The notes below the pieces were generated by a model, which saw only the letters and a list, made by a program, of their open reading frames with translations, did not search any database and had not been told where the DNA came from. A stretch of 64,000 bases of DNA from Bacteroidales bacterium (lineage in GTDB: Bacteria; Bacteroidota; Bacteroidia; Bacteroidales; VadinHA17), in assembly GCA_036261255.1 (NCBI GenBank), contig DATALD010000096.1, positions 1,454 through 65,453 of the forward strand, given 5' to 3'. Shown here in pieces: positions 44,227-63,124 of this stretch (position 1 is its first letter; every line of letters begins with the position of its first letter). A program made the translations under genes and the position numbers.

Positions 44227-45270
44227 ATGATGAAGGTTGACCTGTTAAAGATGGTTGAAAGCGGAGGCTGTTCAAGTAAGATTCCACCACAACAGCTTGA
44301 AGAGATACTTAAGTATCTTCCACTTCCGGCTGATCCCAATATTCTTGTCGACATAGATACACATGATGATGCAGGGGTATACAGGATAAATGATGAGCTG
44401 GCAATAGTACTGACAACTGATTTCTTTCCACCTGTATGCAGCGATCCCTATGAATTCGGCCAGATTGCTGCCACAAACTCAATAAGCGACGTATATGCCA
44501 TGGGTGGCGATCCTATCCTTGCTTTGAATATTATGATGTTTCCATCGGTGAAACTTCCCATGGAAGCTTATGCTGAGATCATGAAGGGAGGGTATGACAA
44601 GGCTGCAGAAGCAGGGGTGAGGATAATTGGTGGCCATACAATTGATGATTATCCTCCGAAGTATGGGCTTGCAGTAATTGGATTTGTTCATCCACAGAAA
44701 ATAATAACAAATTCAGGAGCAAGGGCTGGAGATAAGCTCATTATTACAAAGCCATTAGGGGCAGGTATCTTAAGCGCGGGGTTCAGAATGGGAATGTCAA
44801 ATGAGGAGGAGTTCAGCGCTGCCACAGAGAATATGAAAATTCTGAATAGAACAGGCGCTGCCGTAATGAAGCAGTTTAATCTGAAGGGAGCTACAGATAT
44901 AACAGGATTTGGACTCTGTGGACACGCCCTTAAGATGGCAAGAGCAAGTGATGTCACAGTTACTATCAATATGTCTAATGTGCCATTGCTAAAAGGTACA
45001 TATAACCTTATTGATGAGGGATGCATACCCGGCGCTGCTTTCAGGAATCTTGAATATTGTGAACAATTCCTTAGGACAAGCGATGATCTTGATTATAACC
45101 TGAAGATGATCGCTTTTGATGCACAAACCTCCGGCGGACTTTTGATGTGTGTTCCTTCTGACTTAGCAGATGAGGTTCTTACCGATCTGAAAAGTTCGGG
45201 CTTAACTCAATCCGCAATAATCGGTTCAGTTCAAGATAAAAGTGATAATTATCTCGTTCTAAATCATTGA
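44227..45270 (+). CDS. selD: Selenide, water dikinase (Cys-type)
   Basis: 347 aa. N-terminal GGCSSKIPPQQLEEIL (Cys and Lys aligned with E. coli Cys17/Lys20), DDAGVY, and AIR-synthase-like GHTIDD. Confidence 0.85.
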   Translation: MMKVDLLKMVESGGCSSKIPPQQLEEILKYLPLPADPNILVDIDTHDDAGVYRINDELAIVLTTDFFPPVCSDPYEFGQIAATNSISDVYAMGGDPILALNIMMFPSVKLPMEAYAEIMKGGYDKAAEAGVRIIGGHTIDDYPPKYGLAVIGFVHPQKIITNSGARAGDKLIITKPLGAGILSAGFRMGMSNEEEFSAATENMKILNRTGAAVMKQFNLKGATDITGFGLCGHALKMARASDVTVTINMSNVPLLKGTYNLIDEGCIPGAAFRNLEYCEQFLRTSDDLDYNLKMIAFDAQTSGGLLMCVPSDLADEVLTDLKSSGLTQSAIIGSVQDKSDNYLVLNH

Positions 45271-48716: not shown

Positions 48717-50078
48717 TCAATCAGGGAAATTCAGCCCTTTCAGAACATTATCAACTTCTTCATTTGTCATTTCATGGTCGGGTAGATTACCCTCGAAATA
48801 TTTCTCATAAGCAGAAATATCCAGGTGCCCGTGGCCGCTTAAGTTGAAGAGGATCGTTTTTGAAACGCCTTCGAGATCAGCTTTCCTTGCTTCATCGAGA
48901 GCGCCTGCAATGGCATAAGTAGATTCCGGAGCAGGAAGTATACCTTCACTCTTTGCAAACATCACACCTGCTTCGAAACATTCCCTCTGCATCTTCGATT
49001 TTGCTTCAATCAGTCCATCTTTCAAAACCTGGCTTACAAGCACACCAGCACCATGATACCTAAGTCCTCCTGCATGTATCTTTTCAGGGATAAAATCATG
49101 ACCGAGAGTATACATTGGAAGCAGTGGAGTAAAACCTGCAGTGTCACCAAAGTCATACATGAATTTACCTTTTGTGAGTTTAGGGCAGGATGCTGGTTCT
49201 ATTGCAACTAGTCTTGTCTTTGTTTTGTTTGTAAGGTTTTCTCTCAGGAATGGAAATGCAATTCCCGAGAAGTTTGATCCACCTCCGAAACATCCGATAA
49301 CAACATCGGGATAGTCGCCTGCTTTTTCAATCTGTATAAGGGCTTCCTGTCCGATAATTGTCTGATGAAGGATCACATGGTTTAGAACGCTTCCCAGGGA
49401 GTATTTTGTGTAAGGATCCTGTGCTGCAACTTCCATAGCTTCTGAAATGGCTATCCCCAGACTTCCGGGAGATTCCGGATCTTCTGCAAGAACTCTTCTG
49501 CCTGCTTCAGTCATTGGACTTGGCGAAGGAACTACTTTTGCATTATAGCTGTTCATAAGGAGTTTTCTGCCGGGTTTCTGGTTGTAACTTACCTTAACCA
49601 TGAAAACAAGGCACTCCAAACCAAAATGTTGTGCTGCCCAGCTTATTGCACTTCCCCACTGACCTGCCCCGGTTTCTGTTGTGATCCTCTTTATTCCTTC
49701 TTTCTTATTGTAATATGCCTGAGGGATGGCTGAGTTTGCTTTGTGAGAACCGGAATAGTTTCCACCTTCATATTTATAATAGATCTTGCTTTTTGTTCCG
49801 AGATTTTTTTCAAGGTTGATAGCCCTGAAAAGAGGAGATGGACGATATATCTTATAAAGATCAAGTACCTCATCGGGAATGTCAATATAACGTTCCTGTG
49901 ATACTTCCTGTCTTATTATTTCCATCGGGAATACAGGTGCAAGAGCATCGGGGCCTATTGGCTGGCGTGTTCTCGGGTCGAGTGGAGGAAGAGGTTTGTT
50001 GGGCATATCCGCAACAATATTGTACCATTGCCGTGGCATCTCCCTTTCGCTAAGTAGAATTTTTGTTGACTTTTTCAT
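48717..50078 (-). CDS. trpB: TrpB-like PLP-dependent enzyme (tryptophan synthase beta, type 2)
   Basis: 453 aa. The long N-terminal extension (PRQWYNI..D) is typical of TrpB2. GGNYSGSHKANS PLP-lysine region and GCFGGGSNF. Confidence 0.8.
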   Translation of the reverse strand: MKKSTKILLSEREMPRQWYNIVADMPNKPLPPLDPRTRQPIGPDALAPVFPMEIIRQEVSQERYIDIPDEVLDLYKIYRPSPLFRAINLEKNLGTKSKIYYKYEGGNYSGSHKANSAIPQAYYNKKEGIKRITTETGAGQWGSAISWAAQHFGLECLVFMVKVSYNQKPGRKLLMNSYNAKVVPSPSPMTEAGRRVLAEDPESPGSLGIAISEAMEVAAQDPYTKYSLGSVLNHVILHQTIIGQEALIQIEKAGDYPDVVIGCFGGGSNFSGIAFPFLRENLTNKTKTRLVAIEPASCPKLTKGKFMYDFGDTAGFTPLLPMYTLGHDFIPEKIHAGGLRYHGAGVLVSQVLKDGLIEAKSKMQRECFEAGVMFAKSEGILPAPESTYAIAGALDEARKADLEGVSKTILFNLSGHGHLDISAYEKYFEGNLPDHEMTNEEVDNVLKGLNFPD

Positions 50079-50107: not shown

Positions 50108-50141
50108 AAAATCAAAAAGGCACACTGTGAATCAGTGTGCC
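50108..50141 (-). terminator. Attenuator terminator upstream of trpB2
   Basis: On the minus strand GGCACACTG-ATTCA-CAGTGTGCC (a 9-bp perfect stem, 50119-50141) is followed by TTTTTGATTTT. It ends 30 nt before the trpB2 ATG. Confidence 0.7.
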
Positions 50142-50180
50142 TTTATAATTATATCGTCGGATGCTATATATCAGCCTGCT

Positions 50181-50237
50181 TCACAGTTTATTCGTTCGAC
50201 TGCGCCAGGACCAGGTATGTAACATTTTATTCATCAT
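50181..50237 (-). CDS. Trp-codon leader peptide MMNKMLHTWSWRSRTNKL
   Basis: The minus strand reads ATG ATG AAT AAA ATG TTA CAT ACC TGG TCC TGG CGC AGT CGA ACG AAT AAA CTG TGA. Two Trp codons sit in a W-S-W arrangement. The stop lies 39 nt upstream of the terminator stem. Confidence 0.6.
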   Translation of the reverse strand: MMNKMLHTWSWRSRTNKL

Positions 50238-50255
50238 TTGTTCATCAAAGCTGTA

Positions 50256-50288
50256 CAAAAATAAATAAAATTTTAAATTGTCATCAAA
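50256..50288 (-). promoter_or_regulatory. Candidate Bacteroidota-type promoter (TTTG-N21-TATTTTTG) for the trp leader
   Basis: On the minus strand TTTG is at 50288-50285 and TATTTTTG (TAnnTTTG consensus) at 50263-50256, 18 nt upstream of the leader ATG. Confidence 0.35.
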
Positions 50289-50407: not shown

Positions 50408-51658
50408 TCACTCATATATCACTGCACCCAGTCTCTTCATATCTTTATAAAAGTCTGGGTATGATTTGGCGACACATTGCGAGTCTCTTAGGTAGATCCT
50501 TCCCGAGGCGCCAAGCGCTACGGTGGCCATGGCCATTGCTATTCGGTGGTCCTCGTGCGACTCAACTTTTGCTCCAATAGGGGTGCCTCCGGTGACAGAC
50601 ATCACATCATCGCTGATATCGATTTTTATATTGAGCTTTTCAAATTCTTTTTTCAATGTGTCAGCTCTGTTGCTCTCCTTGTGAATGAGTCTTGACGCAC
50701 CAGAGATATGTGATGTTCCTTTACAATATGTTGCCAGCGTAACAAGAGGAGGGAACAGATCGGGACAATCAGTTGCATCAAAGTCAAATGCTTTAAGATC
50801 TGATGACGAAACATCAACCTGGTCGTTCTTAATGTTTATCCTGGCTCCAGCTTTGTTAAGTGCATCGAGTATCACTTTATCGCTCTGCTTACTCTTGCAG
50901 CTTAGGCCTGTTACGCTAAGATCACCCTTAATAGCTCCTGCCACAAGAAGGAATGCAGCGCCGCTCCAGTCACCCTCCACTTCGTACCTGCCCGGGATAT
51001 ACTTCTGGTTACCTTCTATTGTAAAGACCTTGTAATCATTATTGCTTATTTCGATGCCAAAATGTTTCAGCAATCCAATTGTCATATCTATGTATGGGCG
51101 GCTCTTAAGATTCTTTACGTTGATCTTTGAATCTTTTTTTGCAAGAGGCAAAGCCATCAATAATCCTGTAAGGAGCTGGCTGCTTATTGATCCGTCAATC
51201 TCGCATTCGCCTCCTTTCAGGGGACCTTTAACTGTCAGCGGAAGATATCCTTCTGTTGTTTTGCAGCTGGCCCCGAGCTGTGAAAGAGCATCGGCTATCA
51301 TCGACATCGGCCTTTTCCTCAATGTTGCTGCTCCTGATAGTGTTATATCGATAGGATAAAGTGCAGCAACAGGGGAGAACATCCTAATAGCAAGGCCAGA
51401 TTCTCCGCAATTCAGCTTTGTTTCTTTCAGCTCTGAGGAACCGGTAATCCGTATTTCACCAGGCTGCGGTTCTACTCTGGCGCCTAATCCTGCTGCAACA
51501 CTCAGTGCTGCAAGTCCATCATCACAGTATGAAGGATTAATAATAATGCTCTCACCGTTTGCCAGAAGAGCTGCAGCTATTGCTCTCTGTGTCATGCTTT
51601 TTGATGCGGGCGCCCTGACTATCCCTTGCACTTCCGACGGATCGAAGGATCTTTCCAT
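50408..51658 (-). CDS. aroA: 3-phosphoshikimate 1-carboxyvinyltransferase (EPSP synthase)
   Basis: 416 aa. APASKSMTQRA, LNCGESGLAIRM, DHRIAMA and the typical length. Confidence 0.88.
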   Translation of the reverse strand: MERSFDPSEVQGIVRAPASKSMTQRAIAAALLANGESIIINPSYCDDGLAALSVAAGLGARVEPQPGEIRITGSSELKETKLNCGESGLAIRMFSPVAALYPIDITLSGAATLRKRPMSMIADALSQLGASCKTTEGYLPLTVKGPLKGGECEIDGSISSQLLTGLLMALPLAKKDSKINVKNLKSRPYIDMTIGLLKHFGIEISNNDYKVFTIEGNQKYIPGRYEVEGDWSGAAFLLVAGAIKGDLSVTGLSCKSKQSDKVILDALNKAGARINIKNDQVDVSSSDLKAFDFDATDCPDLFPPLVTLATYCKGTSHISGASRLIHKESNRADTLKKEFEKLNIKIDISDDVMSVTGGTPIGAKVESHEDHRIAMAMATVALGASGRIYLRDSQCVAKSYPDFYKDMKRLGAVIYE

Positions 51659-54871: not shown

Positions 54872-55694
54872 AGCTCATTTCTCCTTTAAAGTATACTCCT
54901 AAGATTTCAAGATTGCTTGTATGATGTTCAAGTATCCTCCTGATAACTGTTGATTTTGTATCCTTGTCTAGTTCAAGGTCGAGGTAGAACATGTATTCCC
55001 ATTCACCATTGAGCCTGGGAACAGATTGTATTTTTGAGAGGTTGATGTTAAGATTTGAGAGGATCACAAGTACAGCAGCAAGAGAACCTGGCTTATGTCC
55101 GGTTGAAAAACAGATCGATACTTTATTGCCTTTTTTGTTTCCTTTTTGTTCATGGCCCACGACAAGGAATCTTGTGTAATTCTGTTTGTATGTTTCTATT
55201 CCTTCGGCAAGTATTTCGAGATCATAGATTTTTGCTGCCTGCATTGGGGCAATTGCTGCAACTCCCACCAGGTTATTCTCTCGTACCTGCCTGGCGCTGG
55301 CAGCGGTATCTTCGCTTTCAACAAGAGTTTTTCCGGGATGTTCATTCAGAAAAGCCATGCACTGGGCAATAGCAATCGGATGAGATCTTATCTCCCTGAT
55401 ATCTTCCATTTTCTGACCTTTCAGAGCCATCAGGTTCTGCCTGATCCGGAGGTTCTGCTCTCCAAGTATCTTTAATCCCGATTCTCTGATTAATGTATAA
55501 TTATACAGAATGCTGCCTGACCGGGCATTTTCAATTGCCATCACTGCAAAATCAGCTTCACCTTCCTTTACTTTATTAAGAGTAAGATCAAATGTAGGAC
55601 ATGGAACTATCTCAATGTCTTCATCATAAATGAAATACTGCCTAGCTGCAGCTTCGTGAAATGAACCTTTTTCTCCCTGGATAGATACTTTCAT
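54861..55694 (-). CDS. pheA: Prephenate dehydratase
   Basis: 277 aa. IQGEKGSFHEAAA, VMAIENARSGSI, TRFLV and a C-terminal ACT domain (GSLAAVL). Confidence 0.85.
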   Translation of the reverse strand: MKVSIQGEKGSFHEAAARQYFIYDEDIEIVPCPTFDLTLNKVKEGEADFAVMAIENARSGSILYNYTLIRESGLKILGEQNLRIRQNLMALKGQKMEDIREIRSHPIAIAQCMAFLNEHPGKTLVESEDTAASARQVRENNLVGVAAIAPMQAAKIYDLEILAEGIETYKQNYTRFLVVGHEQKGNKKGNKVSICFSTGHKPGSLAAVLVILSNLNINLSKIQSVPRLNGEWEYMFYLDLELDKDTKSTVIRRILEHHTSNLEILGVYFKGEMSYDN

Positions 55695-62997: not shown

Positions 62998-63036
62998 AAA
63001 AACAGAAAACCCGTCTGATCTTCTCCGACGGGTCCC
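62998..63036 (-). terminator. Attenuator terminator upstream of hisG
   Basis: On the minus strand ACCCGTC-GGAGAAGATCA-GACGGGT (63009-63033) is followed by TTTTCTGTTTTT. It ends 24 nt before the hisG ATG. Confidence 0.7.
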
Positions 63037-63067
63037 TGATATTAATTTTAAAACACAAAATACCAAA

Positions 63068-63124
63068 TCACCTCGCCTGGGAAACTGGGAAATGATGATG
63101 ATGATGTGTGTTTTTCCTGATCAT
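63068..63124 (-). CDS. hisL: His-codon leader peptide MIRKNTHHHHHFPVSQAR
   Basis: The minus strand reads ATG ATC AGG AAA AAC ACA CAT CAT CAT CAT CAT TTC CCA GTT TCC CAG GCG AGG TGA. Five consecutive His codons. The stop is 31 nt upstream of the terminator. Confidence 0.7.
   Translation of the reverse strand: MIRKNTHHHHHFPVSQAR

Follow-up and report, generated by a model that had tools for sequence, protein, structure and literature searches.

The role of the stand-alone TrpB2 protein is unsettled, and may lie in indole salvage, in O-phosphoserine-dependent tryptophan (Trp) synthesis or in a function unrelated to Trp supply. A trpB2 gene is present on the minus strand of a 64,000-nucleotide (nt) stretch of DNA from a Bacteroidales bacterium (contig DATALD010000096.1, positions 1,454 to 65,453), which is called the window here. 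The question raised by this locus is what the 329-nt gap between aroA and trpB2 contains. An initial annotation of the DNA placed in it a promoter-like pair, an open reading frame (ORF) of 18 codons and a hairpin, followed by the trpB2 start codon, and read the whole as a ribosome-mediated attenuator. This reading is well supported in silico by conservation, reading frame, covarying helices and folding under ribosome masks, and trpB2 is very probably controlled by a transcription attenuator that responds to ribosomes on Trp codons. The exact antiterminator proposed below is probable, with appreciable room for doubt.

The elements mapped on the minus strand of the gap, and the two genes that flank it, are the following (window numbering).

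50285..50288, minus strand: -33 promoter element TTTG of the Bacteroidetes type, with a 21-nt spacer to the -7 box.
50256..50263, minus strand: -7 promoter element TATTTTTG, corresponding to the Bacteroidetes promoter consensus TAnnTTTG, 18 nt 5' of the leader ATG.
50181..50237, minus strand: leader ORF MMNKMLHTWSWRSRTNKL, 18 codons and a TGA stop; ATG at 50237, TGA at 50183-50181.
50205..50213, minus strand: putative regulatory codons TGG-TCC-TGG (W-S-W), with TGG at 50213-50211 and at 50207-50205.
50199..50223, minus strand: region 1, the predicted 5' strand of the 1:2 helix, GUUACAUACCUGGUCCUGGCGCAGU, taken from the RNAalifold consensus, with the Trp codons inside.
50161..50187, minus strand: region 2, the putative switching strand, ACUGUGAA ... 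GGCU ... AUAUAUAGCAU, predicted to pair with either region 1 or the terminator, with the leader stop inside.
50124..50131, minus strand: candidate antiterminator 3' strand UUCACAGU, comprising the terminator loop and the top of the 3' arm; partner 50187-50180.
50116..50144, minus strand: intrinsic terminator hairpin with the core GGCACACUG/CAGUGUGCC at 50141-50119, extended by AAA/UUU to 12 bp.
50108..50118, minus strand: T-tract TTTTTGATTTT, 3' of the hairpin, conserved in an alignment of 30 genomes.
48717..50078, minus strand: trpB2, the presumed regulated gene, ATG at 50078, encoding a TrpB-like pyridoxal phosphate enzyme of 453 aa (Pfam PALP; NCBIfam NF009057, TIGR01415).
50408..51658, minus strand: aroA (Pfam EPSP_synthase), the upstream gene and the last of the pheA-aromatic operon.

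All four elements of the initial annotation lie at the minus-strand positions given there, and its two TGG codons, one codon apart, are present in the 18-codon ORF. The competing pairing to which it drew attention, that of ACTGTGA (50187-50181) with TCACAGT (50130-50124), is exact, reaches 8 bp with a flanking A-U pair, and is both conserved and covarying in the 30-genome alignment. GGC at 50141-50139 is also able to pair with GCU at 50175-50173. On the DNA the terminator core reads GGCACACTG-ATTCA-CAGTGTGCC (50141-50119) and has 9 bp, or 12 bp with the flanking AAA/TTT (50144-50116). The 182-nt leader folds into a structure more stable than those of its shuffles (z = -2.7). The six frames of the window hold 529 ORFs that start with ATG and have 10-30 codons, and just two of these encode WW or WxW. 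One is the leader ORF. The only further small ORF with adjacent Trp codons, MCIYVDKNIGISRKWKILKYLFKLLWWNLT (44364, minus strand), lies near or inside a plus-strand ORF (44227-45270) and probably arose by chance.

The arrangement is not peculiar to the window. A scan with the TrpB2 protein, one genome per species, returned 80 loci. The same leader stands in the same place before trpB2 in 29 of the 31 close Bacteroidales loci (79-86% protein identity). One of the two exceptions is cut by a contig end and the other, locus L008, has a leader deletion. At L008 (3940-4000) the promoter and the leader ORF are lost, and the aroA stop is followed by the hairpin GGGCACGCTGTTCATAGCGTGC with a T-tract and then by trpB2; judged from its sequence, this hairpin would act without its switch. 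No such leader was found at the TrpB2 loci of Flavobacteriaceae, Niabella, Saprospiraceae and other phyla within the 80 loci. Some distant Bacteroidales have Trp-rich leaders of other sequence before trpB2, each with a different terminator: MKKLNKHNWRWRNKSIL (WRW) at L037, ...NWWWQ... (WWW) at L043 and ...YWWWHKM (WWW) at L063. An ORF MNIFVNFQQLITTPLNWRWWWCIYSDRWAE (...NWRWWWC..., WRWWW) with a hairpin and a T-tract precedes trpB2 at L053 (3787-4000), in a metagenome-assembled genome (MAG) of a Caldithrix sp. (Calditrichota). This locus suggests that Trp-codon leaders on trpB2 may have arisen or spread beyond Bacteroidales.

A metagenome scan with the DNA pattern TGGCGCAGC-N8-16-GCTGTGA-N30-60-WTCACAG yielded 120 loci. 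The next gene encodes TrpB2 in 96 of them, and three are cut off by the end of a contig. The other 21 were discarded as GC-rich chance matches with no leader features; among these was one repeated element, seen in six contigs. Because TrpB2 follows in 96 loci and the rest are contig ends or chance, the leader is specific for trpB2, and it was never found ahead of another gene in the 31 close genomes or in the pattern scan. Genomes and metagenomes together provide more than 120 independent loci with the complete arrangement. The initial annotation had named a lack of conservation of the small ORF or its Trp codons in relatives as one finding that would refute its reading; both are clearly conserved.

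That the leader is translated is indicated by 115 distinct leaders, in which the other two reading frames served as the control. An ATG lies in frame and 5' of the first TGG, with no stop between them, in 112 leaders, as against 6 and 12 in the control frames. It is exactly eight codons before the first TGG in 99 leaders, and the intervening codons are variable. In the 30-genome alignment (A1) both TGG codons are invariant, the second one although it is unpaired in the helix formed by regions 1 and 2. The codon between them specifies Ser in 83 of the leaders (TCG 34, TCC 27, TCT 22) and another residue in 32 (CGC 10, TGG 7, TGC 6, TTG 6, also CAT, TTA and TTC). The stop codon is found between -13 and +20 nt relative to the C of CUGUGA in all 115 leaders, and the peptide has 13-33 residues. 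On the 3' side of the Trp codons the nucleotides GCUGUGAA...GCC.UUAUAUAA are kept, with the stop before or after them. Since the stop shifts and the nucleotides stay, selection is on the RNA and not on the C-terminal part of the peptide. Reading frame and nucleotide pattern together are the signature of an RNA switch read by the ribosome and not that of a functional peptide. As is characteristic of the attenuator class, the leader can be translated from a small ORF that is rich in codons for the end product (W-S-W).

It might still be argued that the ORF encodes a functional small protein and that the hairpin is merely the terminator of its gene, as the peptide looks conserved (MK...LYIWSWRSS...AVKQAII). 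This is extremely unlikely. The length of the peptide changes as the stop moves along unchanged nucleotides, residues 3-7 vary freely, and the ORF is always linked to trpB2.

The leader is preceded by a promoter of its own. Of 114 related leaders, 106 have a TAnnTTTG box 5' of the ATG, compared with 10 of 114 shuffled controls, and the distance from the end of the -7 box to the ATG is exactly 5 nt in 95 of the 114. The 18 nt found in the window are due to a 13-nt insertion (50238-50263). With a box 5 nt from the ATG, most leader mRNAs must start at the ATG or within a few nt of it, and would be leaderless or nearly so. The conservation of the promoter implies that the leader and trpB2 can be transcribed as a unit on their own. 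A terminator scan found no other strong terminator between aroA and the leader promoter, so that transcripts reading through from the aromatic genes would encounter this attenuator as well.

The position of the hairpin 3' of aroA, with no other strong terminator between, is also a point in favour of another explanation, in which the hairpin just terminates the pheA-aroA operon and the two Trp codons stand in a small ORF by coincidence. The hairpin directly after the aroA stop and without a leader at L008 speaks for it too. The comparative data nevertheless contradict this explanation and make it very unlikely, given that 112 of 115 leaders have kept ORF, frame and TGG codons, that a conserved promoter separates aroA from the leader, and that region 2 covaries with a conserved terminator loop. 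Moreover, at L026-L028 and L030, where trpB2 is away from the aromatic operon, leader and hairpin have remained with trpB2.

Three alternative helices were recognised in alignment A1 (30 genomes, 188 columns) from the RNAalifold consensus and from pair counts with shuffled and slid controls, which all three exceed, with at least 91% pairing in each. Helix 1:2 joins GUUAUAUAnCUGG...UGGCGCAGC with GCUGUG...GCC.UUAUAUAAC. Its columns 20-33/69-81 are 84% paired and 39-44/57-62 are 96% paired, five pairs are changed on both sides, and it appears in the minimum free energy (MFE) fold of the free RNA. Within region 2, CUGUG is invariant and the following A nearly so. The terminator, a GC-rich hairpin with a T-tract between ORF and gene, as in other attenuators of the class, is 97.8% paired, and 6 of its 12 pairs are changed on both sides. 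In the antiterminator, GCUGUGAA pairs with UUCACAGC, that is with the terminator loop and the top of the 3' arm, and GCC pairs with GGC at the base of the 5' arm. This helix is 96.7% paired over the 30 sequences; sliding the partner by 1-3 columns lowers the value to 26-45%. Changes on both sides occur at three of its pairs, 63-120 (AU to UA), 64-119 and 57-126. In loci L010 and L016 the partners are GCUGUGUA and UACACAGC, in four genomes they are GAU and AUC, and the window and L018 have A-U where most sequences have G-C. A terminator loop that is conserved and at the same time covaries is hard to explain except by pairing with region 2. Region 2 can thus pair with region 1 or with the terminator, which gives the leader, in silico, the mutually exclusive antiterminator of the attenuator class.

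Conserved alternative structures could also belong to a riboswitch, or to an element bound by a protein or tRNA (a T-box, a TRAP-like or some unknown element), which senses Trp or tRNA-Trp directly and for which translation of the ORF is irrelevant. The first UGG pairs with GCC in helix 1:2, and part of its conservation could therefore be structural. The second UGG is invariant yet unpaired, and the ATG and the whole-codon spacing are conserved while the sequence between them varies. The T-box was rejected, as there was no T-box match and no other Rfam family match in the window at gathering score or in seven related loci, nor a T-box match in the leader at E<=10. TRAP was rejected too: the leader (50237-50119) has no GAG and one UAG, where 9-11 (G/U)AG repeats spaced 2-3 nt are required. 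No complex conserved ligand-binding core is seen, and two sibling leaders in the window, described below, use His and Phe/Tyr codons. Direct sensing of this kind is accordingly quite improbable. A permissive Rfam scan of the leader gave only sub-threshold matches driven by the terminator (AbsR25, trpB motif RF04312, microRNAs).

How a ribosome would bias the choice among the three helices was addressed by constrained folding of the 30 aligned leaders. The same pattern was obtained in all of the 24 readable outputs, and the energies given here are those of the window. The free RNA forms helix 1:2 and the terminator (-36.8 kcal/mol). With a ribosome on the stop codon (stop and 12 nt masked), the terminator alone is formed (-21.3 kcal/mol). 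When the ribosome has the second TGG in its A site (mask to +12 nt) and the RNA stops short of the complete 3' arm, the antiterminator is the MFE structure (-16.6 kcal/mol). A stall mask at the Trp codons frees the ACUGUGA/UCACAGU pairing to which the initial annotation had drawn attention, and a ribosome at the stop covers it. The folds switch in the way that leader-peptide attenuation predicts, as did every other sequence-level feature of the model that was open to a test.

On these grounds the attenuator would operate as follows. Transcription would start at the TTTG/TATTTTTG promoter, some transcripts probably reading through from aroA, and a ribosome would translate the 18-codon leader while RNA polymerase moves on ahead. 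When Trp is sufficient, the ribosome would reach the UGA inside region 2 (ACUGUGA) and cover region 2, which after release would pair again with region 1. In both situations the GGCACACUG/CAGUGUGCC hairpin and the U-tract would form and transcription would end about 30 nt before the trpB2 ATG. When Trp is scarce, the ribosome would stall at UGG-UCC-UGG and cover region 1 (UGGCGCAGU), leaving region 2 free. Free region 2 would then pair through ACUGUGAA with UUCACAGU and through GCU/GCC with the GGC that forms the base of the 5' arm, which would keep the terminator from closing and let the polymerase read into trpB2. If the model is right, a change of ACUGUGAA to UGACACUU would abolish trpB2 induction. 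We infer three features of this scheme, namely that translation is coupled to transcription, that read-through responds to Trp and that the antiterminator is kinetically preferred.

Several points weigh against the attenuator as described. To our knowledge, transcription-translation coupling lacks a demonstration in Bacteroidales. There are just two Trp codons and they are not adjacent. The hairpin of L008, kept after the leader was lost, indicates that it can exist without the switch. Few lineages contribute to the covariation of the antiterminator, most positions of which do not vary at all. With the stall mask on the full-length RNA, the terminator is the MFE structure at -25.7 kcal/mol, compared with -17.4 kcal/mol for the forced antiterminator. 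As the terminator is the more stable even with region 1 masked, the switch must be kinetic; the terminator of the E. coli trp attenuator is likewise more stable than the antiterminator. However, the antiterminator 3' strand lies mostly in the terminator loop and 3' arm, which are transcribed after the 5' arm, and only GCC:GGC and AU-rich inner pairs can form before the rest of the strand is made. A kinetic advantage is accordingly harder to see here than for the trp attenuator of E. coli, and the late transcription of this strand is the weakest point of the model.

The same weakness leaves some room for an attenuator with a different antiterminator, for instance one consisting of an AU-rich segment and GCC:GGC only, or for a Rho-dependent component. 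In its favour, the terminator is stronger than the antiterminator proposed here, the 3' strand of the latter is made late, and the AU-rich inner pairs differ among sequences. Yet the terminator loop, invariant or covarying, is exactly complementary to region 2 in 30 genomes, and the same arrangement in flavobacterial trpE leaders would be hard to explain otherwise. We regard a different antiterminator as improbable but not negligible.

The Trp leader is not the only candidate attenuator in the window. Two other amino acid biosynthesis operons on the minus strand begin with similar elements.

55846 (ATG) to 55783-55781 (stop), minus strand: Phe/Tyr leader ORF MKISQNIFATFFYFYFYFKNR (FFYFYFYF) before pheA, with a TAnnTTTG box upstream.
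55739-55715, minus strand: pheA leader hairpin AAAGGCCCCGG-AAAAA-GGGGCCTTT with a T-tract, 20 nt before the pheA ATG at 55694.
63124 (ATG), minus strand: His leader ORF MIRKNTHHHHHFPVSQAR with five consecutive His codons, before the first gene of the his operon (ATG 62973).
About 63033-63009, minus strand: his leader hairpin ACCCGTC...GACGGGT with a T-tract; the putative attenuator spans 63009-63124.

The Phe/Tyr leader and its terminator are present in 16 related metagenome loci. No Rfam match was obtained for the pheA leader, and none at gathering score for the his leader. The occurrence of leaders with five His codons and with Phe/Tyr codons besides the Trp leader argues that the organism routinely uses leader-peptide attenuation. 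RNA family models thus miss three leader attenuators (Trp, Phe/Tyr and His) in one stretch of the window.

The identity of the downstream protein as TrpB2 is clear. It scores 708 bits with NCBIfam NF009057 and 628 bits with TIGR01415, both above the cut-offs, and 138 bits with the canonical trpB model TIGR00263, for which the cut-off is 392. The genes on the minus strand are, in order, the his operon, a gap, pheA, an aminotransferase, tyrA, DAHP synthase/chorismate mutase, aroA, the gap with the Trp leader and, last, trpB2. The gene had been called an orphan, or lone, trpB2 in the initial annotation. This description has to be abandoned, since trpB2 is the tail of a pheA-aminotransferase-tyrA-DAHP synthase/chorismate mutase-aroA operon, and the neighbourhood is kept in most of the close relatives; L026-L028 and L030 are the loci where leader and hairpin accompany trpB2 elsewhere. 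The annotation had further presented leader-peptide attenuation as textbook for proteobacterial trp operons. The mechanism stands and the proteobacterial setting does not, as such leaders are known in Bacteroidetes (Bacteroid-trp). A type IX secretion system (T9SS) plug protein and an NQR operon are encoded in the window, the GC content is about 40%, and homologous loci come from Bacteroidales and Rikenellaceae MAGs; the host is a Bacteroidales bacterium and not a proteobacterium.

A conserved Trp-codon attenuator reserved for trpB2 and present in over 100 genomes and contigs of Bacteroidales provides regulatory evidence on the role of TrpB2. It suggests, through the sequence of the leaders, that more TrpB2 is wanted when charged tRNA-Trp is low, and hence that the protein has a role in Trp supply. 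A broader proposal can be put forward only tentatively, and we consider it possible but somewhat doubtful as a whole. TrpB2 would be a Trp synthase induced by starvation, using for example scavenged indole, and its gene would close an aromatic supra-operon as a tail specific for Trp; this supra-operon would have two attenuators in succession, one for Phe/Tyr at the head and one for Trp inside. The internal attenuator would have an unusual antiterminator, which captures the terminator loop and 3' arm and not the 5' arm. Were this so, transcripts from the operon promoter would have to pass both the Phe/Tyr and the Trp checkpoint to express trpB2.

The mechanism itself is textbook, and several known leaders can be compared with that of trpB2. 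Among riboswitches, the trpB motif (RF04312) is a candidate from Firmicutes and Fusobacteria (Narunsky et al. 2024, PMC11109978). It resembles the leader in being a cis-regulatory leader with a terminator that is sometimes found before trpB. It was rejected, as the window reaches 22.1 bits where the gathering score is 59, in the terminator part only, and as the candidate belongs to other phyla. The small RNA FopS (RF04319) gave sub-threshold matches at L001 (3916-4014, 34.2 bits) and L010 (3920-4008, 29.6 bits), the gathering score being 56. These are antisense to the terminator and the region of the trpB2 translation start, and may reflect only a bidirectional hairpin and a typical Bacteroidetes start region.

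Comparative genomics has also led to the prediction of trp attenuators in actinobacteria, with a leader peptide of 2-3 UGG codons, a terminator and an antiterminator (Seliverstov et al. 2005, PMC1262725). Secondary trp loci are among the sites that these attenuators precede, and their sequences are GC-rich and unrelated. The "trpB2" of that study is the second trpB copy in a trpB2A operon and not a member of the TrpB2 (TIGR01415) family. A literature search on the regulation of trpB2 by attenuation gave nothing relevant beyond Merkl 2007 and Seliverstov 2005, and one on attenuation in Bacteroidetes gave only a general survey of leader genes.

The enterobacterial trp operon leader (trpL, RF00513; the Yanofsky model) has regions 1:2, an antiterminator and a terminator as well, and a stop codon placed so that the terminating ribosome covers region 2. 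The Trp codons are followed by Arg-Ser or Thr-Ser in a similar way: E. coli has ...WWRTS*, the window ...WSWRSR.. and relatives ...WWWRSS*. RF00513 does not match the leader of the window at E<=10. Sub-threshold matches were found in the relatives L010 (3857-3959, 37.8 bits) and L021 (3859-3965, 29.9 bits), with a gathering score of 41; in both, the model aligns UGGUGGCGCA..., the 1:2 hairpin and the terminator, which may reflect either convergence or a deep conservation of the UGG-CGC-A motif. Phylum, promoter type and regulated gene are different, and the Trp codons of the window are one codon apart. The main structural difference is that the antiterminator 3' strand is the 5' arm (region 3) in E. 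coli, whereas in the window it is mainly the loop and the 3' arm.

The closest counterpart is the Bacteroid-trp leader (RF01692), found with Bacteroidetes trp genes, for which attenuation by a peptide leader is presumed and which its authors call "a loosely conserved hairpin" (Weinberg et al. 2010, Genome Biol 11:R31, PMC2864571). The type of attenuator has thus already been described for Bacteroidetes trp operons, with no record of trpB2 as a target. Comparison with the seed alignment (PMC2864571, supplementary files 14 and 136) shows the same phylum, an MK.. ORF with at least two UGG codons, an AU-rich element, an intrinsic terminator and a gene of Trp synthesis. One trpE seed has CAUACUUGGCAAUGGCGCAGU where the window has CAUACCUGGUCCUGGCGCAGU. 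In flavobacterial trpE seeds GUCGUGAA is exactly complementary to the terminator loop and 3' arm UUCACGAC, which is the antiterminator geometry of the window. The three seeds whose flanks were read differ in the downstream gene: they precede trpE (flavobacterial and ABCM01) or trpB1 (Bacteroides), and none precedes trpB2. In the Bacteroides seed the first gene of the trp operon is the canonical trpB1 (...GYYGEFGGAYVPE...; FGGAYVPE motif).

RF01692 has no match in the window at gathering score, in its leader at E<=10 or in seven relatives at E<=1, and the Rfam scan of the whole window at gathering score returned nothing. In the other direction, when 12 seeds were scored with an nhmmer profile made from the trpB2 leaders, all of them ranked above 240 shuffles, with low scores (1.5-18.6 bits) that come from the ATG-to-UGG stretch only, and this ranking could reflect shared function. 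The Bacteroid-trp model therefore misses a large and well-conserved subfamily, which amounts to an annotation gap. The leaders ahead of trpB2 are of a kind already known, and within it they are a new, large and tightly conserved trpB2-specific subfamily of Bacteroid-trp-like leaders.

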